55,677 nt of DNA from positions 1-55,677 of IMG/VR virus record IMGVR_UViG_3300046786_000284, one strand, 5' to 3'. This DNA is from a virus (Duplodnaviria; Caudoviricetes). Below the pieces are notes generated by a model. The model saw only the letters and a list, made by a program, of their open reading frames with translations, had not been told where the DNA came from and did no database searches. The position numbers and the translations under genes were made by a program. Below are positions 9,429-22,300 of this stretch, piece after piece; within the stretch, counting starts at the first letter, position 1, and every line of letters starts with the position of its first letter.

Positions 9429-9441
9429 TTAGGAAAACAAA

Positions 9442-9729
9442 ATGGCATCAGCAATTTATACAGCAAACAGTACAAGTCAATTAACAACAGTCGCTACCAC
9501 TGACAAAGTTCGTATTGCTACAACAACTTCAGCAATTGCTATTGCTGTTGGTAACTCAAGCGTAACAGCTAACTTAACAGCATGTGAAATTATTCCTGCT
9601 AACACAGTAGACAATAGTTTTATTGTTGGTCAGGGTAACTATATAGCATATATTAATGTTGCAGGTACAGCAGGCGCATTCAGCATTACTGGTTTAGGTG
9701 CAACTCATGCTACCACCGGTACTGAATAA
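9442..9729 (+). CDS. Small putative virion protein
   Basis: AGGA SD; Thr/Ala-rich beta-type composition. Confidence 0.6.
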   Translation: MASAIYTANSTSQLTTVATTDKVRIATTTSAIAIAVGNSSVTANLTACEIIPANTVDNSFIVGQGNYIAYINVAGTAGAFSITGLGATHATTGTE

Positions 9730-9740
9730 TACATCTTATA

Positions 9741-9815
9741 GATAAATATATCATACACTCTTAATTCTGAGAGTTTATGCAGTACCCACTGCGTAGCGGC
9801 TAGAACCCGCAACTC
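9741..9815 (+). promoter_or_regulatory. Late promoter plus structured 5' leader (candidate cis-regulatory RNA)
   Basis: GATAAATA at 9741-9748; stems TATGCAGT/ACTGCGTA and GCGG/CCGC, closed by GAGTT/AACTC or alternatively ACTCTTA/TGAGAGT. Confidence 0.55.
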
Positions 9816-9832
9816 ATTAAAAGGAAAATCAA

Positions 9833-11206
9833 ATGGGACGTCCTCTAAAAATAGCGAAAGCTCAAGCAATTTTAACAGTAACTAACACTACTGCTACAAC
9901 AAACATCGTTACAGTTTCTCAAACATTAGCTGATTACGGCATCATCGCAGGTATGCCTTTCGTACCTAGCATTACAACTGGTACAAACTTAGTTGCTGGT
10001 ACAACATATTATGTTTTACAAGTAACAGGTGCATCAACATTCACTGTTTCTGCAACACAATTAAGTGCTAACCCAACATACACTTCGGTTACATTGACTA
10101 CAGGCACAACTGCATCTGCGTTGTCTGTAGGTATTGTTGATTCTGGTTTCATCAATCCAGATGGTTCGAATACAGCTACTAACTCTACTACATACGGTGT
10201 AGTTGGTGGTAACACAGGTATCTACGGTTCACAAGTTCTATGTAATGTAGCATTTGGTGTTAACGGCACAGGTACTGTATTTGCTGCCACAAGTAGCAAC
10301 GTTGTAGTTGGTCTAGGTACTGACTTTGCTAACCTAGCAACTGGCACTCGCTTGTTTGCAATTGATGCAAGTAACAACGTAAATCTATTAGGTACAGGTA
10401 CATCTACAAAAGGTAATTTGACTGTTGCTGTTGCTAACACAACTGCTACTGGTAACGTTATCGGTACAAGTGGTAATGCACAAACATTAACATTAGATAC
10501 ACCAGTTACATTTGATGCTAACACAGGTGGATTAACAACAGGTACAACATACTTTGTTAAGACAATCGCTAACGCCGCGGCATTCACTGTAGCATTGACA
10601 CGTGGTGGTGCACCAGTAGCATTGACTAATGGTACAGATACAGCTAATGCTGTTCAGAACCGTGTTGTTTTAGGTGCAGTTTCTGCTTCTAATGCATCAG
10701 GTCCAACTGGTCTAGGTGATCCATTCATTCAAGCTCTTCCAGAAGCCGGTTACATTGTTCGTCAAAAAGGCAAAACAAAGTATCTAGTTCAAGGTGGTAC
10801 AACAGGTATCTTAGCACAAGCATATACTGCTAACGTTGCTAATACAGCATTGACACCAAATACAATGTCTATCATTTCTACGAATGCCGCATCTGGTACA
10901 AACTACATTTCTTCATTGAATGATTATCAATCTGAAGTGTTCCCTGCTACAGTTGCTGATGGTTCATTGACTATTGGTTCTGTATACACAATTTACAGTT
11001 CAGGTAATACTGCATGGACATCATATGGTGCATCAAGTAACATCACTGGTGTAACATTCACTGCTACATCAGCAGGTGGTAGTGGTACAGGTCTTGCTGT
11101 ATTGGCTAACGTTAACCCAGATGTTATTGCGACATTCGGTACAGCTTATGCGGCAAATACATACGGTGGTCAACCTAACCCAATCGTAACTATTAACAAC
11201 GCTTAA
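9833..11206 (+). CDS. Putative virion structural protein (MGRPLK N-terminus)
   Basis: Late box and strong SD; two copies of a P-x-x-F...G-L-x-x-G-T-T-Y-Y/F-V module; GYIVRQKGKTKYLV. Confidence 0.6.
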   Translation: MGRPLKIAKAQAILTVTNTTATTNIVTVSQTLADYGIIAGMPFVPSITTGTNLVAGTTYYVLQVTGASTFTVSATQLSANPTYTSVTLTTGTTASALSVGIVDSGFINPDGSNTATNSTTYGVVGGNTGIYGSQVLCNVAFGVNGTGTVFAATSSNVVVGLGTDFANLATGTRLFAIDASNNVNLLGTGTSTKGNLTVAVANTTATGNVIGTSGNAQTLTLDTPVTFDANTGGLTTGTTYFVKTIANAAAFTVALTRGGAPVALTNGTDTANAVQNRVVLGAVSASNASGPTGLGDPFIQALPEAGYIVRQKGKTKYLVQGGTTGILAQAYTANVANTALTPNTMSIISTNAASGTNYISSLNDYQSEVFPATVADGSLTIGSVYTIYSSGNTAWTSYGASSNITGVTFTATSAGGSGTGLAVLANVNPDVIATFGTAYAANTYGGQPNPIVTINNA

Positions 11207-13337: not shown

Positions 13338-15058
13338 TATAGATTAGTTCTCGGTGGTATAGCATCGGGTGCTAAAGTTAATATACTTGACAATGGCTGT
13401 GCTTGAGGTACAGTTGTGCCACTGGTTAATACAGTTGATTGCTCATTATTTATGAAGCCTGACAACTGTGACTTATTTGTTGCGTCAAATGATGTATCTG
13501 TTCTGACGTTCTTAGATACACGAACCCAAAGTTTGCCATCCCAGCGATATAGTAATTGAGGGAAGTAATCAATTCGTAAGAAGTAGTCACCTACTTGAGG
13601 ATTCTGAGGGAATGCAATACCAGCACCTGTCGGGAACCCGTTAGGAGCTTGATCTGTTCCAGTCAAATAACCCGTAGTATAACCAAACGATCTTGGGCTA
13701 CTACGTGCAATATATTGATATGCAGGGTCACAATCTGCTCTAAAGTCCATTTGTGTAGAAACAGTGCCTGTAAAGCCAGGAGCTGTTGGATCTTGGTCAG
13801 CTGTTGCATATGTGTTGTCAGCAGTACCATATGGACCGGTGATGGTACCTAAAGATTGTGCTATAACAATACGATCACCTTGTAATGGACCAGAACCACT
13901 ACCAATTGCTTCTGGTGCAAGCTCTATACTTTCTAAGCTCATTTGCACAAATGCGTCAATTGGATCAGCAGAGAAATCAGAGTCGGCTGTCATATCCCAT
14001 ATGCTTTTTATAGCGGCTTTAGGAATACGAATTACTGGACTAGGATTCTTGTACTTAGGGTTACGCATCATAGCGACTGTACCAGTGACTGTAATTGGTG
14101 CACCGTTTGAGTTAGTATTGATGTTAACCGGTGGAGCAGGTTGATTGTTCTTACCGGATGGTGTGTTGTTCTCAGAGAACTCACCATATGTAGGAACAAT
14201 ATACAATTGGCTTTGATCGTAACCTGCTTTTGGTAGATTGCGTTTTGCCTCGTCCAAATTAGCATCGTTAATCGCAATATTCTTATTGTATGTAGAAAGA
14301 ATATCTTTAAGATTTTGTTCCTCAGTTAACTGCCAATATGTTTCATCAGGTGGATGTGTGCCTGCCGGCACATCAGTTATACTAGTATAATTCTTATCAC
14401 CGTAACTGATAATATATCCTGAAGGATACGGTCTATCTTTATCCCATAATCCAAGATAGTTATCTTGATTAATCGGTTCTTGTAAAATCTGACTAAATTC
14501 TTGACTATCAACTAATGGTTCACATTTAATACGCCATAAATGAGGCATCCAAGTAGGACTAAAACCTTCACTTGCATAATTGCCATCAGTAACTTGGTAG
14601 AATCTCTTTAATGCAGTAGGAATAGTTTCTTTTAATGGATTATAATCTAACAAGTGTGGTAATTCAATAACATCACCAACCATTAATTTACGACCAACTA
14701 AGTCAATCATGTCATTATAGTGAACTGTGATGAAAATAATATCGTTGCTTAGGAATAAACCAAATTGGCTTAAATCAAAATCTAAATTCTGTACATTATA
14801 GTGACCACGCAATCTATAAATGTTTGGGTCATATGTTCTATCTCTATTCTCTAAGAACAATAAATCCTGAATATTAGTTGGGCTTAATTCAGCATATTCA
14901 GGTTGTGTATAATCATTTGACGGGCCTTGATCGGTTGGCCCTAAATATTTATGGACATACAGGTCTGTTGCACCTGCAGTAAACATTTGCGAAATGGTTT
15001 TGTCAAAAAAACGATAATCATTCGTTTTATTAGGGCGGTAAAGGGATAATCTTGGCAT
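13337..15058 (-). CDS. T4 gp14-like neck/head-closure protein with insertions
   Basis: LSQFGLF, GDVIELPH, wRIKCEP core; adjacent to the gp15-like gene; internal CBM-like segment. Confidence 0.7.
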   Translation of the reverse strand: MPRLSLYRPNKTNDYRFFDKTISQMFTAGATDLYVHKYLGPTDQGPSNDYTQPEYAELSPTNIQDLLFLENRDRTYDPNIYRLRGHYNVQNLDFDLSQFGLFLSNDIIFITVHYNDMIDLVGRKLMVGDVIELPHLLDYNPLKETIPTALKRFYQVTDGNYASEGFSPTWMPHLWRIKCEPLVDSQEFSQILQEPINQDNYLGLWDKDRPYPSGYIISYGDKNYTSITDVPAGTHPPDETYWQLTEEQNLKDILSTYNKNIAINDANLDEAKRNLPKAGYDQSQLYIVPTYGEFSENNTPSGKNNQPAPPVNINTNSNGAPITVTGTVAMMRNPKYKNPSPVIRIPKAAIKSIWDMTADSDFSADPIDAFVQMSLESIELAPEAIGSGSGPLQGDRIVIAQSLGTITGPYGTADNTYATADQDPTAPGFTGTVSTQMDFRADCDPAYQYIARSSPRSFGYTTGYLTGTDQAPNGFPTGAGIAFPQNPQVGDYFLRIDYFPQLLYRWDGKLWVRVSKNVRTDTSFDATNKSQLSGFINNEQSTVLTSGTTVPQAQPLSSILTLAPDAIPPRTNL

Positions 15059-15063
15059 ATACT

Positions 15064-15071
15064 TATTTATC
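15064..15071 (-). promoter_or_regulatory. Late promoter for the neck operon
   Basis: GATAAATA on the minus strand, 5 nt before ATG 15058. Confidence 0.65.
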
Positions 15072-15088
15072 GCTACATGCCCAAGAAC

Positions 15089-15117
15089 TTGACAATATAT
15101 AGATGTTGTGTTATACT
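15089..15117 (+). promoter_or_regulatory. Strong sigma70-type early promoter
   Basis: TTGACA-N17-TATACT with extended -10 TG; AAGGAG SD downstream. Confidence 0.85.
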
Positions 15118-15144
15118 TGATAAATCATTGTAAAGGAGCACCTC

Positions 15145-16332
15145 ATGGCTACACGTAAACGCAATACAGAAGATCATTCACAAGTCAAAGCATTGAACCC
15201 AAAAAACCCTGATACTAAGTATATGGGTGACGAACCACTGTATGTCATTCAGCCTCCCAATGAGGGTCGTATTTCAGCACTTTCTAATGGTTTCAGTTGG
15301 TATAACTGGTTTTACAGTAAGAAAGATGCAAAAGAACTCATGTGTCAGTTCTTAGAATTAAACAAGCGCACACAAGAAGCCAAAACAATGCGAAAAGTCG
15401 CTGATGGTGAGTTTGTCAATACTTACTGTTGGCTTGCACGTATGAAGTTGCGTGGATTGGAAACTACTGAAACCGAAGAAACAAAACTTGAAAATGAAAT
15501 TTCTCGTCTATTGAAGACACACACTGCACCTGAAGCTAAAGAAGCTAGCGCAACTGGTGGTGCGAAGAAAGAAGCGGTAGTGGTTGAAGTGTCTCGTCCA
15601 AACATTCAGGACATTCTGCGTGACAAGGCAAAAGATGCCGCAGGTGAACTTGAAGGTGTGTTTGATGAATTTGTTACTGAAGGTAAAACAAAGACAAAGA
15701 CAATGGATGTTGTCGCTAAATTTAATGTGATGCCACAACACATTAGTTTGATTTCTGATGTTTGGAAGAAGAAACAAACTGAATTTGCAGACTTGCAGGA
15801 GGGCAAAGACAAGCAATTAATTGAGGGCTATAGTCACCTCAACAAGATTCAGGTTAGAAATACTGTAAAATTCATTGAACAAGTATTGACTGATTTGAAC
15901 GCATACATTAGTGTCAAGAAAGCAAGCAAGGCACCTCGTCAGCGCAAAGCAGTGCCTGTTGAAAAGATTGTGGCTAAATTGAAATACTTGAAAGTGTTTA
16001 AAGATGTTGCCGCAAAACTTGACTTGGTGTCTATCAGTCCTGTAAAATTACATGGTGCAAGTGAAGCATGGGCATATGATACTGCAAAGCGCAAACTGCA
16101 TCACTATATTGCCGATGACTATAGCAAAACATTTACTGTAAAAGGTAATACACTATTGGGCTTTGATACAACTAAGTCCGAAGTTAAAACTCTGCGTAAG
16201 CCGAGTGAACAAATTAAAGAAGTTATGGGAAGCAAGCCCGCGGCTCGTAAGTACTTTAGTGATATTAAAGCAGTTGCAACAACACCAAATGGACGCTTTA
16301 ATGAAAGCATGATTATTTTGAAAGCATTTTAA
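15145..16332 (+). CDS. Conserved hypothetical (early) protein
   Basis: 395-aa Lys-rich ORF with a good SD; C-terminal VKGNTLLGFD...KTLRKP...GRFNE...ILKAF resembles conserved T4-like phage proteins; function not recognised. Confidence 0.7.
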   Translation: MATRKRNTEDHSQVKALNPKNPDTKYMGDEPLYVIQPPNEGRISALSNGFSWYNWFYSKKDAKELMCQFLELNKRTQEAKTMRKVADGEFVNTYCWLARMKLRGLETTETEETKLENEISRLLKTHTAPEAKEASATGGAKKEAVVVEVSRPNIQDILRDKAKDAAGELEGVFDEFVTEGKTKTKTMDVVAKFNVMPQHISLISDVWKKKQTEFADLQEGKDKQLIEGYSHLNKIQVRNTVKFIEQVLTDLNAYISVKKASKAPRQRKAVPVEKIVAKLKYLKVFKDVAAKLDLVSISPVKLHGASEAWAYDTAKRKLHHYIADDYSKTFTVKGNTLLGFDTTKSEVKTLRKPSEQIKEVMGSKPAARKYFSDIKAVATTPNGRFNESMIILKAF

Positions 16333-16769
16333 TGAGTAATATTGATTTAAACAAATACAAAGATTTTGTAGAAGCTGTAACCAGCAAAGCAAGCAATGAC
16401 TTGACTACATTCCATAATCGTTTAGACGATTTAGATAGTAATTATGATCCAACGACTGGGGTAGCAGGTCCTGATATTAACGTACCTTTGCTACTTACAG
16501 CTTGTCTAGGATTAGCGGCTGAGGGTGGCGAGTTTATCGAAGTGCCCAAGAAAATCTTTTTTCAAGGTAAACCACTGACCGATGCTGAGGTCTTTCACTT
16601 GAAACGTGAGCTAGGGGATGTCATGTGGTATTGGATCAATGCTTGTCGTGCTTTGAATCTTGATCCAAACGAAGTCATTGACGAAAATGTGCGTAAATTA
16701 GAAAACCGTTATCCCGGTGGTAAGTTTGATGCACACTATTCAGAAAATCGCAAAGAAGGCGATATCTGA
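16332..16769 (+). CDS. MazG-like nucleotide pyrophosphohydrolase
   Basis: GLAAEGGEFIE, RELGDVMWY, ENVRKLENRYP. Confidence 0.85.
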   Translation: MSNIDLNKYKDFVEAVTSKASNDLTTFHNRLDDLDSNYDPTTGVAGPDINVPLLLTACLGLAAEGGEFIEVPKKIFFQGKPLTDAEVFHLKRELGDVMWYWINACRALNLDPNEVIDENVRKLENRYPGGKFDAHYSENRKEGDI

Positions 16770-16789
16770 GCGTTAATGGGGCAGCCTAT

Positions 16790-16981
16790 TTGCAACACGG
16801 TGTTGCTAGAAAGATCATAGTGTCTCCTTGGCGTAAGTGGTTCGCATGGCGCCCCGTAACTGTACACGGTAATAGAGTTTGGCTCAAGACCGTGTACCGA
16901 CGCAAAATAAACACATATGTTGACATGGAAGATTGGGCTAGATATGAGTATGGCACCATCTTTGATGTGTTGACAGAATAA
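16790..16981 (+). CDS. Small hypothetical phage protein
   Basis: WRKWFAWRPV...VWLKTVYRR pattern typical of small phage ORFs; start (TTG) uncertain. Confidence 0.55.
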   Translation: MQHGVARKIIVSPWRKWFAWRPVTVHGNRVWLKTVYRRKINTYVDMEDWARYEYGTIFDVLTE

Positions 16982-17350
16982 TTGGTCAATAGGTTCCGCT
17001 ACCTGGAAATGCGGCGAAACTCCGTCCTCATCGTGTAGTGACGGTAGAAGCGAGACCATCGCAAATTTATGGGACTACCCTTGGATGCTTTAAACGCCTC
17101 ACCTCTGCTGAGTAACGTTTCCCATATCTTAATAGTTGTACGTTTGCCAGGTCATAGTAATTGCGATAGAGGGCCTGGGCTGTGTAGAGATTCCTGATGA
17201 ATATTTTCTCTACTACAACAGCGAATACGGAAAAGTCCCTTCATGGGTCGGTGCGACATAGACAATCCTCCACTATAATCTTTTAATTCATCATCGCCTA
17301 TAGTTCCTCAAGAATGTTTTTTGGCTTGTAGATTTTATATCTACTCGCCA
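16982..17350 (+). ncRNA. Candidate large structured non-coding RNA
   Basis: About 400-nt gap without a credible ORF in an otherwise tightly packed genome; many complementary helices (see findings). Strand inferred from flanking transcription. Confidence 0.5.
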
Positions 17351-17409
17351 TTGCCTAAGAATATCTAAACAACTATTTCCGATAAATAATACATAATAGG
17401 TAACTACAC

Positions 17410-18195
17410 ATGGCAATCAACATTCTTTCTACACCAAATGGATTAACCCTAGACGAATTAAAACAAACACTGTTTCAGAACATTAGATTCCGTTTAGGTG
17501 ATGGTATTATTGATCTGGAATTAGATCCCGAGCACTACGAAGCCGCATATAATTATGCCATTAAGGTATATCGTCAACGTGCTCAAAATGCAACCGCGGA
17601 ATCATATACATTAATGACTGTGATTAAGAACGTGGATACATACACACTACCTCAGGAATTCATTAATGTCCGCTGTTTATATCGTAGAACAGTTGGATTA
17701 GAAACTGGTCCCGGTTCTAGTTCATTTGATCCGTTCAGTAGTGCTATCTTAAACACTTATCTACTAAACTATAACAATGCAGGTGGTATGGCAACATATG
17801 ATTTTTATGCAGGTTATGTTGAATTAGCCGCACGTATGTTTGGTGGCTATGTAGTCTACACATTTGACCCCGTTACTAAAGTACTGCGTATTGTTAGAGA
17901 CCCTAAAGGTACTGGTGAGAGGGTACTTATTTGGGCCGACGTCCAACGTACAGAAGAAGTATTGTTACAAGATCCGGGCGCTGGTGTTTGGATTGGTGAC
18001 TTTATAATAGCAATTCTCAAAGGCATCATTGGTGAAGCCCGTGAAAAATTTTCTACAATCGCAGGCCCAGGTGGCGGCACTAGTCTAAACGGTACTGCAA
18101 TGAAGGCAGAATCTAAAGCCGCTCAAGAAGCATTGATTGATGAACTCAAACGCTATGTAGATTACAGTCAACCATTAACATGGGTTCAAGGGTAA
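17410..18195 (+). CDS. T4 gp13-like neck protein (head-tail adaptor)
   Basis: RLGDGIIDLEL, YTLPQEFINV, GEAREKF...PGGGTSLNG; GATAAATA at 17381-17388. Confidence 0.85.
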   Translation: MAINILSTPNGLTLDELKQTLFQNIRFRLGDGIIDLELDPEHYEAAYNYAIKVYRQRAQNATAESYTLMTVIKNVDTYTLPQEFINVRCLYRRTVGLETGPGSSSFDPFSSAILNTYLLNYNNAGGMATYDFYAGYVELAARMFGGYVVYTFDPVTKVLRIVRDPKGTGERVLIWADVQRTEEVLLQDPGAGVWIGDFIIAILKGIIGEAREKFSTIAGPGGGTSLNGTAMKAESKAAQEALIDELKRYVDYSQPLTWVQG

Positions 18196-18203
18196 ACTAA
18201 CAC

Positions 18204-18232
18204 TTTACTTTTTCACACTCCTGTCATATACT
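18204..18232 (+). promoter_or_regulatory. sigma70-type promoter
   Basis: TTTACT-N17-TATACT, then an AGGAG SD. Confidence 0.55.
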
Positions 18233-18255
18233 AAGTATCTGATAGGAGTTTCCAT

Positions 18256-18888
18256 ATGATTATAGGCGTAACCGGCTTTATTGGTAGCGGCAAAGACACA
18301 GTAGCTGATTATCTTTGTACGTTTCATGGGTTTAAAAGAGTAAGTTTTGCGGCGTCATTGAAAGATGCAGTCAGTTCAATTTTTGGTTGGGACCGAGAGC
18401 TATTAGAAGGCTCTACCAAGACTAGTAGAGAATGGCGAGAACAAGTTGATCCGTGGTGGAGTGAACGTTTGGGAATGGACATCACACCTAGATGGGTTCT
18501 ACAATATTGGGGCACGGAGGTCTGTCGCAATGGATTTCATAAAGATATTTGGGTCGCCAGTGTAGAGAACAAACTAAGACAAAGCAAAGACAACATTGTT
18601 ATTACTGATTGCCGTTTTGCAAATGAAGTCAATTCATTAAAGAATGTAGGTGGAATCACAATGCGTGTAGAACGTGGAGAAAAACCAGAGTGGTACGAGG
18701 CCGCAGTATCATTCAATAAAGGTGAGAGGGGTAATATGACTTGGGCACTAAGCAGGTCAAAATTAGAGCAACACGGGGTTCATGCTAGTGAGTATTCCAG
18801 TGTTGGATTAAACTACGACTATTATATTGATAACAACAGTTCTATTGACGACTTGCATAATCAAATAAAGTCAATAGTCAACCTTTAA
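18256..18888 (+). CDS. Deoxynucleoside monophosphate kinase (T4 gp1-like)
   Basis: GFIGSGKDT P-loop, TPRWVLQYWGTE, VITDCRF, HASE. Confidence 0.92.
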   Translation: MIIGVTGFIGSGKDTVADYLCTFHGFKRVSFAASLKDAVSSIFGWDRELLEGSTKTSREWREQVDPWWSERLGMDITPRWVLQYWGTEVCRNGFHKDIWVASVENKLRQSKDNIVITDCRFANEVNSLKNVGGITMRVERGEKPEWYEAAVSFNKGERGNMTWALSRSKLEQHGVHASEYSSVGLNYDYYIDNNSSIDDLHNQIKSIVNL

Positions 18889-19224
18889 ATCCCCTCTTTT
18901 CCAGTTAACTTCTTTCTTCTTAACTACTTCAACGCAGTTGAGACATATAGAACGTAGATTAGATTGTAGAATATTTTCTAAATCACCGTCTATATGAAAT
19001 ACAGTTATCTGTGAGGTGAAGATGCTCTTAAAGCCACATAAATCACATGTGGCTTTTTTCTTATAGCCACTCTTGGTCCAGTTAGCCTTGCGTGGCTTTT
19101 TCTTTTCCTTCTTTCTACCACACTCATCACACATACTACGGTAATGCGTAACATTGTTCTTTACGTAGTTTACAGCGCAAAAGTTTTTATTACAGTGTTG
19201 GCAAATTGGTCTATTTAACGGCAT
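18871..19224 (-). CDS. Zn-finger protein with degenerate HNH motif
   Basis: Four CxxC pairs; FHIDGD...NLRSICLNCV; GCTAAATA 4 nt before the ATG. Confidence 0.65.
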   Translation of the reverse strand: MPLNRPICQHCNKNFCAVNYVKNNVTHYRSMCDECGRKKEKKKPRKANWTKSGYKKKATCDLCGFKSIFTSQITVFHIDGDLENILQSNLRSICLNCVEVVKKKEVNWKRGDLKVDY

Positions 19225-19347
19225 AATCTATTTAGCTGAAAAGACCTTCGAAGGCACCGTTAACCATCCTTTTTTAGTTATTTTAATAAATAATACTATG
19301 CATTAGGGTTGTAACCCTCAAAATTTTACATAAAAGGAAAATATAAA

Positions 19348-22300
19348 ATGGCATTAACATCACCAGGCGTAGAAGTCACGATAATTGACCAAAGTCAGTA
19401 CTTACCAGCCCCAACTAGTTCTGTCCCATTAGTAATCTTAGCAACAGCACAGAACAAAGCTGACGCTAGTGGTACAGGTGTAGCGCAAGCTACGACCGCG
19501 GCAAACGCAAATAAACTTTATCAAGTTACGAGTCAACGTGATTTGGTTACCCTCTACGGTACACCGTTCTTCTATACTACTACGAATGGTACACCAATTC
19601 AAGGTTATGAATTAAACGAATATGGTCTATTGGCTGCTTACAGCTTATTGGGCGTCACTAATCGTTGCTACGTTCTACGTGCTGACATTGACTTGGCTAG
19701 CTTAGTCGGTCAAACAGGTCGCCCAGTAGGATCACCTACTAATGGAACTTGGTGGTTAGACACTACAACTTCTACATGGGGTATTTTTGAATTCAATGCA
19801 ACTACTGGTAAATTCGTAGAGCAACTACCAATCGTTATCACTAGTCCTACTAATTTGTCAGGTGGATATCCATTGAGTAGCATCGGTAATATCGGTGACT
19901 ATGCAGTGAATGCAATTGAAATTGATACTGTACCTTCAAGCTTAAGTGGAAAACAATTCTTCTATAAGACTACAGCTAATCAATGGACATTCTTAGGTTC
20001 TAATGCTTGGTTGGGTGACATTCCAACTATCACTGGTGCAAATGCGCCTACATCATTGAGCGCAGGAGATACATTCACTCTTAACATTAACGGTGGATTT
20101 AGTACAACTATCGCAGTTCCAGCATCAACTAATAATACAGTAGCAGGTGTTGCGGCAGCTATCAATGCATTAGACTATGCCCCTATCTCAGCGGCAGTTC
20201 GTGATAGCAAACTATGCATCTTCTCTAAACTAAGTTTAGGTATTGCTAACCCATATATTAGAGTTGTATCAGGAACAGGAACAGTTCTAAGTGATTTGGG
20301 AATTGACGTTGGATATTATTATCAAACTGGCTTATCATGGGGCACATCAGCAGAAATGCCATTATGGACATCAAGTCAACAATATCCTCGCCCTACAGGT
20401 TCTATTTGGATGAAAATGGGTACTGCAGGAAGCGGTTTTAATCAAGTAGTATCACAATATAATGCTACTACTGCTTCATGGGTTGCAAAAAATGTAGGTA
20501 ACTATGTTTCTGATGCGGCAGCTAATAATTCACTAGACCCTACAGGCGGTCAACTAATACCAGCTAATACAGTATACGCACAGTATTTGTTCAATGGTAG
20601 CTTTAGATCAAGTCCGATTTATCTATGGGCACGTAGTGCAACGGGACCAACAGTAGTTACTGGAAATGATTCAACACCTACATTTAGTGGTCCATACACA
20701 TTGTATGTAAACATTTCAACTCCAGGTTCTGATTCATTGTCATCAGCATATACTGTAACATTTAATTCTTCATATACGGCAGCAGGTTTCTGTACTGCTT
20801 GGTCAGCGGCTAATATTCCGTTCACACAAGCATCAGTTACGACTGACGGAGCAATTCAAATTGTTCATACCGAAGGTGGTGAAATTGTTATCAGTGATAT
20901 CAATACAACAACAGGTATAAGCAATGGTTTCTTAGCGGCAGCAGGATTTGTAGCTGGAACTACAACTGGTTGCAAGACTGGCCCATCAGTTGCATTGGCA
21001 TTTACTCCTGCTCAAGCAGGAACACAACCAGATACATCAGGTACAGGTTTAGTGCCAAACGTTGTTACTGTTAATGGAGTTTATGTAGTTAATGCTACAT
21101 CATTTGTAGCCGCAGGTAGCGGTTATGCAGTAGGTGATACTGTTAAGTTCTTGGGAACACAATTAGGCGGTTCAACTCCTGCTAATGACTTGGTAGTAAC
21201 AGTAACAGCAGTTAGCACTGGTGCAGTAACAGGTGTAGCTTATTATGATGGTACAGCCCCAGCAAACTATGCTACTCAATTGTCAAATTGGGTTGATTTC
21301 ACATATACTGCTAATGAAGGTGCACCCAACGTAGCCCCTGCGAATAATACAAACTGGTTCTACAGTGTAGTTGACCAAGTTGACATTATGGTTAACTATA
21401 ACGGACAGTGGAATGGTTATGGTAATTTGAACTATGATAGTTCAGGATTCCCTACAGCAACTGGTTCAAACTCAACTGATCCAGCTGGTCCGATTATCAG
21501 TGCTAGCACACCAACAACACAATCAACTGGCGCGTCATTAGAATACGGTGATTTGTGGATCAGTACTGCTAACCTAGAAGATTATCCAGTTATCAGTCGT
21601 TGGGAAAGTGTTAATGGTACAGATCAGTGGGTTCTGTTAGATAATGCAGATCAAACTAGTTCTAGCGGTGTATTGTTTGCTGATGCTCGTTGGGCTCCAA
21701 GTGGTTCAGTAAATCCAGCAGATGATCCTATTCCGACAATCGTTTCTCTATTATCAAGTGATTACTTAGATTTAGACGCTCCTGAATCATCATTGTATCC
21801 AAATGGTATGTTGTTGTTTAACACACGCCGTTCAGGTTACAACGTTAAGCAGTATCGTGTGAACTATTTTAACTCTACTACATTCCCAGATCAAAGTCTA
21901 CCTTCAGAGACAGATGCATGGGTATCAGTAAGTGGATTACAATCTAACGGTTCACCTTACATGGGTCGTAAAGCACAACGTGCTATGGTTGTTGAAGCAT
22001 TGCGTTCAGCATGTGACACAAACTTAGCAATTCGTGATGAAGATAACTTCTTCAACTTGATGGCTTCTCCTAACTATCCAGAAATGCAACCTAACATGGT
22101 TGTGTTGAATGCTGATCGTGGTGAGACAGGTTATATCATTGGTGATACTCCATTAGGATTAGCTGATGATGCTACTCTAATTCAAGCATGGGCTACTAAT
22201 GCCGCAGGTGCAACAAGTACAGGCGAAGAAGGTTTAGTAACTCGTAACACATACTTAGGTTTGTTCTATCCAAGTGGTATTGCTCCAGACTTAAGTGGTA

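Follow-up and report, generated by a model that had tools for sequence, protein, structure and literature searches.

Comparative evidence for an undescribed family of large structured phage RNAs, with a possible two-state 3' domain, ahead of late structural genes

Large natural RNAs with several pseudoknots are, to our knowledge, rare, and almost all of them are remarkable: the ribosome, RNase P, self-splicing introns and RNA cages. Among phages, GOLLD and ROOL are encoded by phages or prophages and form RNA-only multimeric cages, according to a published report (PMC12286853). The same text describes GOLLD as often exceeding 800 nt, both RNAs as often lying near tRNA islands, and one ROOL contact, read as tertiary from covariation, as having proved to be between chains (PMC12286853). 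The element considered here lies at positions 16979–17365, on the plus strand, of IMG/VR record IMGVR_UViG_3300046786_000284, a linear virus fragment of 55,677 nt (completeness estimate 14) that was analyzed at full length and is called the window below. It sits between a 63-aa open reading frame (ORF) and a head-tail adaptor gene. An initial annotation, made from the sequence alone, had proposed a large, multi-domain, structured phage non-coding RNA at this place. Covariation in 92 distinct homologues bears this out, and indicates that the element belongs to an undescribed family of large (~385–480 nt) non-coding structured phage RNAs. The explanation that fits best overall is a new phage RNA family whose members probably act as stand-alone RNAs with a conformational switch.

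Homologues were collected by several routes. A search of viral contigs with the adaptor protein, from which the best 80 loci of 592 confirmed relatives were kept, found a counterpart of 16982–17400 in 15 of the 80, at 79–85% identity; in most of the others a MazG gene lies about 60 nt from the adaptor gene. A scan of viral contigs with a 17-mer gave 83 stretches with an exact match, 75 of them homologous (one, L149, confirmed later), while a 19-letter pattern gave 104 stretches (80 of them listed) that included further divergent members, and a pattern from the L9 loop described below gave 78 stretches with additional ones. All 58 stretches found with a gapped pattern in metagenome contigs match the family profile. 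Altogether, an nhmmer profile matched in 173 of 451 loci, 146 of them at full length, which reduce to 92 distinct sequences with that of the window included. Identity to the window ranges from 58 to 91%, and the element is present once, in one position, per genome fragment.

The family was found only in viral and metagenome contigs. In prokaryotes, where 185,579 species were represented by one genome apiece, two pattern scans yielded 59 and 86 exact matches and no family members: the profile matched none of the 59 from the first scan and none of the 80 fetched of the 86 from the second. By our own estimate, made for the first scan only, 59 is about what chance would give. A blastn search in distant mode with four queries (the window element and three divergent members) gave no match in 50,697 deposited phage records, and a wider stretch of the window matched deposited phage genomes in the MazG gene only. 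Several contigs with the family or the adaptor gene (L106, L149, L143, L060, L401 and L437) are 250–364 kb long, and the completeness of the window is estimated at 14; some carriers at least would therefore appear to be jumbo phages.

Compensatory changes and 1-nt indels were already plain in the first alignment of relatives. The first helices came from RNAalifold on 36 sequences, and the model was completed by eye and with a mutual-information scan. The resulting 94 pairs were tested on 55 distinct sequences, and the values for single helices given below refer to all 92. Cells are paired in 90.8% of cases, against 33.9–46.2% when partners are slid by 1–3 columns; compensatory change occurs in 60 of the 94 pairs, against 22–39 in the slid controls; and the covariation score is 0.315, against 0.054–0.080. 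None of 500 shuffles attained any of the observed measures. Accepted pairs include 326 G.U cells and 87 A.C cells, and because the former outnumber the latter the RNA is placed on the plus strand. Of 56 indel events among close relatives, 53 have a length not divisible by three. The median length of the longest stretch free of stop codons is 43 codons on the plus strand and 58.5 on the minus strand. A minus-strand ORF at 16736–17059, put forward in the initial annotation as a possible coding explanation, is open in none of 84 relatives. Since indels ignore the frame and this ORF is closed in relatives, the region is non-coding.

Folding energy gives a different impression. The plus strand folds at -91.0 kcal/mol, compared with -91.85 ± 5.46 for dinucleotide shuffles (z = 0.16), and the minus strand at z = -1.56. 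The initial annotation had offered this comparison as a test, and by it the idea would have been wrongly dropped; for this element it is uninformative. The comparative evidence for a structured RNA is decisive, while the energy of a single sequence is not. That there is nothing special here, only the remains of a gene or a spacer with helices that arose by chance, could be argued from an energy inside the shuffled distribution and from short ORFs on both strands, but 173 homologous loci, the compensatory changes, the frame-breaking indels and the closed minus-strand ORF leave this practically no chance.

The limits of the conserved block (16979–17365) follow from conservation in two alignments (A1 and A2). 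Its 5' limit is at or just past the stop codon of the 63-aa ORF, and its 3' limit is the end of a direct repeat, R2. Within it, the alignments support a predicted fold of about 15 helices and at least four pseudoknots (P1/P5, an H-type knot, PK-B and PK-D). All helices are on the plus strand.

The 5' end is itself knotted. P1 pairs 16982–87 with 17054–59 (520 of 552 cells, 94.2%; six of six pairs covarying), and its 3' strand is the loop of hairpin P5 (17050–52 with 17060–62), which ties the 5' end of the RNA into a pseudoknot. In the MAFFT columns P5 is out of register and only 58% paired, so it was tested by folding each sequence separately: in 87 of the 92, a P5 stem of at least 3 bp surrounds the P1 3' strand, and the stem itself occurs in more than 20 sequence versions. 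Just inside P1, helix S1 (16991–94 with 17001–04; 348 of 368 cells, three of four pairs covarying) interleaves with P3 (16996–17000 with 17009 and 17011–14, U17010 bulged; five of five covarying) to form a compact H-type pseudoknot at 16991–17014, in which pair 17000/17009 is seen as TA, CG, TG and GC. Hairpin P4 follows (17022–26 with 17040–44; 456 of 459 cells, 99.3%; four of five covarying). A short helix of 17045–47 with 17075–77 is 93.8% paired, yet almost invariant.

P6 (17068–74 with 17120–26) is paired in 643 of 644 cells (99.8%), with seven of seven pairs covarying, and encloses P7 (17093–96 with 17116–19; 364 of 368 cells) and P8 (17098–17101 with 17109–12; four of four covarying). 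A two-pair hairpin at 17078–84 is unsupported as drawn. The joiner J6/9 (17127–17146) is single-stranded and conserved in the alignment; its A17134 shows base-triple-like covariation with G17071-C17123, a pair of P6 (17123/17134 is CA in 28 sequences and TG in 19). Many relatives have an extra GNRA-capped hairpin past 17138 (GUAA, GCGA, GAAA or GCAA), which the window is without. P9 (17147–53 with 17172–78; 642 of 643 cells, six of seven covarying) holds the pair with the highest mutual information in the whole alignment, and its 18-nt loop, L9 (17154–71), is nearly invariant.

P10 (17179–82 with 17219–22; 368 of 368 cells) is continued by P10a (17184–90 with 17207–13; seven of seven covarying). 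The loop of the latter, L10, forms PK-B, in which 17195–17201 pair with a bridge strand at 17287–93 (643 of 644 cells, six of seven covarying). This pseudoknot was first detected by RNAalifold, and its pair 17195/17293 is TA in 49 sequences, CG in 40 and TG in three. Between the two strands is a three-way junction (17231–17284) made up of P12 (17231–35 with 17280–84; five of five covarying), P11 (17237–39 with 17245–47; three of three) and P13 (17250–53 and 17255–56 with 17269–74; 546 of 552 cells), the last with a conserved 12-nt loop. In an allele from a DNA run, 17274 T>C converts a G.U pair of P13 to G-C.

Six of the nine helices listed in the initial annotation recur in this fold: TGGTC/GACCA is P1, CCGC/GCGG is P3, CCGTC/GACGG is P4, TATGGGA/TCCCATA is P6, GCTGT..GTAGAGA/TCTCTAC..ACAGC comprises P10 and P10a, and GGC..GTAGAT/ATCTAC..GCC is the P15 discussed next. 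The other three are not supported by the 92 homologues. ATCGCAA/TTGCGAT is 64.6% paired, AGGG/CCCT 76.2% and GTCG/CGAC 81.8%, and each clashes with a helix paired in over 94% of cells. Nor is the long-range pseudoknot specified there: ACCTGG/CCAGGT is paired in 63.0%. ACCT pairs instead with AGGT at 16991–94 and CCAGGTC with 17172–78, and four other pseudoknots are supported.

The 3' domain offers two pairings for one strand. In PK-D, positions 17163–70 of L9 pair with strand d (17340–48, C17344 bulged) in 736 of 736 cells, and the pairing probably extends to 17160 and 17352, with C17349 bulged. Pair 17164/17347 is CG in 82 sequences and TA in ten, with zero exceptions, and the ten T-A cases carry two versions of strand d; pair 17162/17350 is TA in 45 and AT in 44, with three exceptions. 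In hairpin P15, strand d (17339–49) pairs instead with strand b (17323–33). Strand b occurs in 57 distinct versions, every one of which can still pair with the unvarying d, at times with the register shifted, with a mean duplex energy of -13.85 kcal/mol, compared with -4.45 ± 2.18 for shuffled b strands, none of which reach the observed mean. Because both use strand d, P15 and PK-D cannot coexist, and the alignments show both to be under selection. Strand b also resembles L9, and a further strand, c (17293–98), resembles d. L9 can pair with c (at 17294–97) in 354 of 368 cells, with mismatches, which makes it a weaker alternative to strand d and not the main pairing. Taken together, the pattern suggests a four-strand (L9, c, b, d), two-state switch. 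PK-B and PK-D may alternatively be contacts between molecules; the inter-chain contact in ROOL, as described in PMC12286853, calls for the same caveat here.

Strands c and d are followed by two direct repeats, R1 and R2 respectively. Repeat unit A occupies 17293–17316 and consists of strand c and then R1 (17306–16), between which many relatives have an extra hairpin, P14. R2 (17354–17364), at the 3' end of the conserved block, is recognized by its parallel covariation with R1. Within any one sequence R1 and R2 share the same core, but the core changes from sequence to sequence; at least 11 versions are seen, and the most frequent occurs in at least 52 sequences. Thus 17311/17358 is AA in 48 and GG in seven, and 17315/17362 is TT in 49 and AA in six. 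In the window, R1/R2 match codons 5–6 of the adaptor gene, but this match shows no covariation.

Parallel change of this kind would be expected if the repeats were sites for one fast-evolving protein, and the interval from R1 to R2 contains an A/T-rich stretch as well as an inverted repeat. Together with a position at a module border, upstream of the terminase gene in one phage group, this could indicate a site acting as DNA, such as a replication origin or packaging site with iteron-like repeats for protein binding. However, the covariation is of the RNA type, with G.U tolerated on one strand (326 against 87), the helices are nested and knotted, and strand d covaries with L9, 180 nt away. A DNA-level site is accordingly most improbable.

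Loci L020 and L051 bear on the repeats in another way. Overall they agree at 92% of positions, and the first 320 nt of the element hardly differ; the 3' module and the downstream spacer (aligned to 17298–17381 of the window) diverge throughout, as if the 3' module had been swapped by recombination. Since the two share the core but differ in the 3' module, any partner of R1 and R2 lies outside the core, and the best guess is that the repeats read a nucleic-acid partner outside the element that differs between phages.

Described RNA families were searched with Rfam 15 (4227 models). At gathering thresholds, the sole match in the whole window is a freshwater-2 motif at 9758–9835, outside the element. 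Permissively (E up to 10), 16700–17500 gave four matches, at 11.7–17.7 bits against thresholds of 45–50, so even then no family is matched by the element, and eight divergent members (34,478 nt, E up to 5) gave one weak, unrelated match outside it. ARAGORN found no tRNA or tmRNA genes in the window or in 51 loci, one of which (L103) does not belong to the family and matched the pattern by chance. As the initial annotation had already concluded, the element matches neither RNase P RNA nor tmRNA. No RNase P model, which would recognize the conserved regions CR-I to CR-V with the P4 pseudoknot, is among the matches at either permissive threshold; where RNase P RNA pairs its 5' and 3' ends in its own P1, the 5' end of the element (16982–87) pairs with 17054–59; and an RNase P-like run at 17229–39 is not conserved among relatives. 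For tmRNA, with its tRNA-like domain and tag frame, the ARAGORN result is equally negative. Neither the GOLLD nor the ROOL model matches.

Introns were also considered. There is no Rfam match to the conserved core of a group I intron (P3–P9, with the guanosine site in P7) at E up to 10, and no gene is interrupted: the element lies between a stop codon and the promoter-like motif of the next gene, and loci without it have an ordinary 60-nt spacer and no joined exons. For a group II intron, domains V and VI have no Rfam match, and among the genes next to the element neither a reverse transcriptase nor a maturase was seen. The broader idea of a mobile or self-processing RNA, whether intron-like, a transposon-associated ribozyme or a unit released by processing at R1 and R2 around P15, draws on the patchy distribution (15 of the 80 closest loci have the element, and the "empty" sites are clean), the presence in two unrelated phage groups, the frequent location directly after terminator-like hairpins, the identical short repeats around a hairpin, and the exchange of the 3' module between the close relatives L020 and L051. 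The lack of a match to any Rfam ribozyme model, the uninterrupted genes and the single copy in a single position make it very unlikely all the same. In addition, no transposase was seen adjoining the element; homing or HNH endonuclease genes in L197, L198 and L171 are 0.6–5 kb away, beside the terminase gene.

An IMG/VR screen put forward 10,006 candidate structured RNAs without names (PMC10690425); this locus is not mentioned in its text, and parts of the element may be listed unnamed among the candidates. A full-text literature search turned up no RNA described at this position or as having these features. On the comparative evidence, this appears to be a new class of large phage non-coding RNA.

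In the window, the element follows a MazG-like pyrophosphatase gene (16332–16769) and the 63-aa ORF (16790–16981), all on the plus strand, and precedes the 261-aa head-tail adaptor gene (17410–18195, plus strand), which the initial annotation called gp13-like and which was identified by PHROG 211 ("head-tail adaptor Ad2", E = 6.6e-24) and is without any Pfam family match. Farther downstream come genes for a dNMP kinase and a tail sheath protein. The initial annotation had put the region at the end of a presumed sigma70-driven early operon, but a promoter scan gave no site close to the element. The region had been described as the largest ORF-poor gap. This holds at cutoffs of 60 and 80 aa, where no ORF-free stretch of the window is longer than 17060–17409 (350 nt), but not at 100 aa, where 9429–9832 is longer. 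The latter is a 404-nt stretch at whose end the freshwater-2 motif falls, on the plus strand, with 62.2 bits against a threshold of 49.9. The 63-aa ORF, which has weak PHROG matches to families of unknown function, represents a small gene family of its own, whose presence does not depend on that of the RNA. It occurs without the element in L030, L053, L054, L064 and L069, and the element occurs without it in L020; because both situations are found among relatives, the element is a separable module.

More generally, a same-strand ORF ends within 150 nt upstream in 77 of 80 representatives, at a median of 15 nt and in 23 cases within 3 nt, and this neighbor varies (MazG, the 63-aa ORF and others). 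Downstream, the adaptor gene follows in 67 of 91 representatives, a median of 36 nt past the end of the profile; two have too little downstream DNA to judge. The remaining 22 are from phages sharing none of the neighboring genes of the window, so that the family extends to genomes with quite different surroundings from the MazG-like and adaptor genes first noted. In two of these (L171 and L197) the element is ~3.3 kb before genes for the terminase large subunit, an HNH endonuclease, portal and capsid. Of ten downstream ORFs in this divergent group, nine are without a PHROG family and the tenth encodes a homing endonuclease. The common setting, in two unrelated phage groups, is thus after a same-strand gene and before the late structural block.

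A separate hairpin lies outside the RNA fold, at 17373–17403 on the plus strand (stem 17373–77 with 17395–99), with the motif GATAAATA at 17381–88 in its loop and the ribosome binding site of the adaptor gene in and after the 3' arm. From the T4 late consensus TATAAATA, this motif may be a T4-type late promoter. The same arrangement, with a masked ribosome binding site, is found in all 20 inspected loci without the element (among L007–L074), and ATAAAT occurs between element and start codon in 57 of the 67 representatives that precede an adaptor gene. By analogy, the hairpin may be read as a putative late promoter placed so that longer early transcripts stay untranslated.

These arrangements bear on the possibility of a cis-acting RNA at the border of early and late genes, controlling read-through (by termination, anti-termination, processing or insulation) by means of P15 and PK-D. 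Its position is fixed relative to the late module, at a short distance from the adaptor gene in most representatives and at the head of a terminase-portal-capsid block in an unrelated phage group, while the upstream neighbor is variable, and a two-state 3' domain is typical of regulatory RNAs. Several features do not fit well with this, however. In 57 of 67 cases a late-promoter-like motif intervenes between element and gene, and loci that lack the element still have the small hairpin that masks the ribosome binding site. No U run comes after P15, and a scan of 16300–17900 found no terminator, only three weak promoter-like sites, none of them positioned for the element. In the divergent group, ~3 kb and small ORFs of unknown function come before any recognizable late gene. 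Finally, 385 nt with four pseudoknots far exceeds known elements of such a type. A cis-acting role is the main alternative, but on balance unlikely.

Five freshwater DNA metagenomes contain 94–100% of sampled words of 14000–20000, and three RNA libraries 12–25%. One RNA-library contig of 173 nt spans 16976–17148 with no differences, starting 6 nt before P1, and other RNA-library contigs fall on neighboring genes. A freshwater DNA run (X4) contains a second allele of the element over 17254–17325, with seven substitutions and two 1-nt deletions, as well as a contig skipping 17369–17438 (the spacer and first adaptor codons), so that related strains co-occur.

A stand-alone RNA could come about as follows. 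The RNA would be transcribed as the tail of an upstream same-strand transcript, as proposed because a same-strand ORF ends just upstream in 77 of 80 representatives, and would then be trimmed to a stable stand-alone form protected by its knotted 5' end (P1/P5). At about the point where early genes give way to late ones, it would act in its own right, as a ribozyme, a ribonucleoprotein or an RNA-only assembly. It would not be a leader of the downstream gene, since downstream genes differ between the two phage groups. In the 3' domain, strand d would either close P15 with strand b, which mimics L9, or be captured by L9, with c mimicking d, and the switch would set one or the other of two identical repeats, R1 or R2, in the same place, most likely to read the outside partner that varies between phages. 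The mechanism as a whole (processed tail, stand-alone action and 3' switch presenting R1 and R2) is tentative and somewhat less likely than not. A more ambitious version would make it a new class of large catalytic or RNA-guided phage machine, with a constant, multiply knotted core and a 3' switch that alternately presents R1 and R2, two copies of one short programmable guide, to an outside nucleic-acid target of host or phage; the RNA alone would then react in two steps, for instance by cutting and joining or by capturing targets one after the other. This is quite unlikely.

A number of observations weigh against a stand-alone switching RNA. Of 100 dinucleotide shuffles, 55 fold at least as well as the plus strand. 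PK-D consists of invariant strands with only two covarying positions. No partner for R1 and R2 was found among exact and G.U-tolerant complements within 700 nt or by comparing, base for base, close relatives whose repeats differ, and duplex energies against the 5' flank and against 150 nt up- and downstream were the same for a locus's own repeats as for foreign ones. The conserved position before late structural genes in two unrelated groups would fit a cis role equally. In 27 representatives the element is immediately preceded by a stable hairpin, which in many cases has a terminator-like U run; this would stop read-through, and implies an own promoter or processing. Several divergent members have TATAAT- or TATAAATA-like motifs 5–13 nt before P1. 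The three RNA runs have no contig on 17149–17928, which at their low depth says nothing on absence, and with Logan contigs, low depth and possible DNA carry-over the RNA-library evidence is weak, so that expression is barely shown.

The element is abundant in uncultured freshwater phages and is found at the same functional border in two unrelated lineages. The balanced four-strand switch, and the pair of repeats that change together with no visible partner, are directly testable features. For structural biology this would be a well-covarying target of a size suited to cryo-EM, and for phage biology a candidate RNA player in the early-to-late transition.

Some further features adjoin the element in the divergent loci. 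A conserved motif of two adjacent hairpins is found 30–110 nt past it in L180, L424, L094, L101, L197, L199, L198, L203, L175, L171 and L088, all of the divergent group. The first of the two hairpins has a GA / (G/A)AA internal loop, and the motif has no Rfam match in the four divergent-group loci scanned (L175, L203, L088 and L149). On the other side, the 130 nt before the element were compared in L171, L175, L180, L198, L394, L397, L410, L428, L431 and L446; in this group the upstream same-strand ORF ends in a conserved Lys/Pro-rich C-terminus at the 5' edge of the element.

Several known systems share parts of this picture. RNase P RNA and tmRNA are similar in size (~350–400 nt) and in having several pseudoknots, but the element has no Rfam or ARAGORN match to them and its 5' end is paired internally instead of with its 3' end. 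In attenuator-type switches such as the trp leader, four strands allow two exclusive pairings, the first with the third resembling each other and likewise the second and fourth. Strands L9, c, b and d may follow the same logic, which also makes direct repeats change in parallel. Unlike the trp leader, the element has no terminator U run past P15, its switch is joined to a large knotted core, and the parallel change reaches R1 and R2, which have no visible partner. Another parallel is with the exonuclease-resistant RNAs (xrRNAs) of flavivirus 3' untranslated regions. Similarly, the upstream coding transcript would carry the element in its 3' untranslated part, with the 5' end of the element tucked into a pseudoknot with a downstream loop (P1/P5, a likeness at the level of base pairs only), and one RNA-library contig starts just before P1; it is, however, much larger, and has no similarity to xrRNAs in sequence or by model. 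The neighboring hairpin at 17373–99, a separate feature, recalls gene e of T4, where a late promoter lies inside a hairpin that masks the ribosome binding site on longer early transcripts; it too has GATAAATA in the loop and the ribosome binding site in and after the 3' arm, which by analogy suggests that read-through transcripts containing the element may leave the adaptor gene unexpressed. GOLLD and ROOL differ in that the element fails their Rfam models, and, according to PMC12286853, GOLLD is longer and both are often near tRNA islands, whereas no tRNA genes were found around the element in the window or the 51 loci. They are like it in having no known protein partner or function, in being phage-borne and several hundred nt long, with many helices and several pseudoknots, and in having been found by covariation in environmental sequence.

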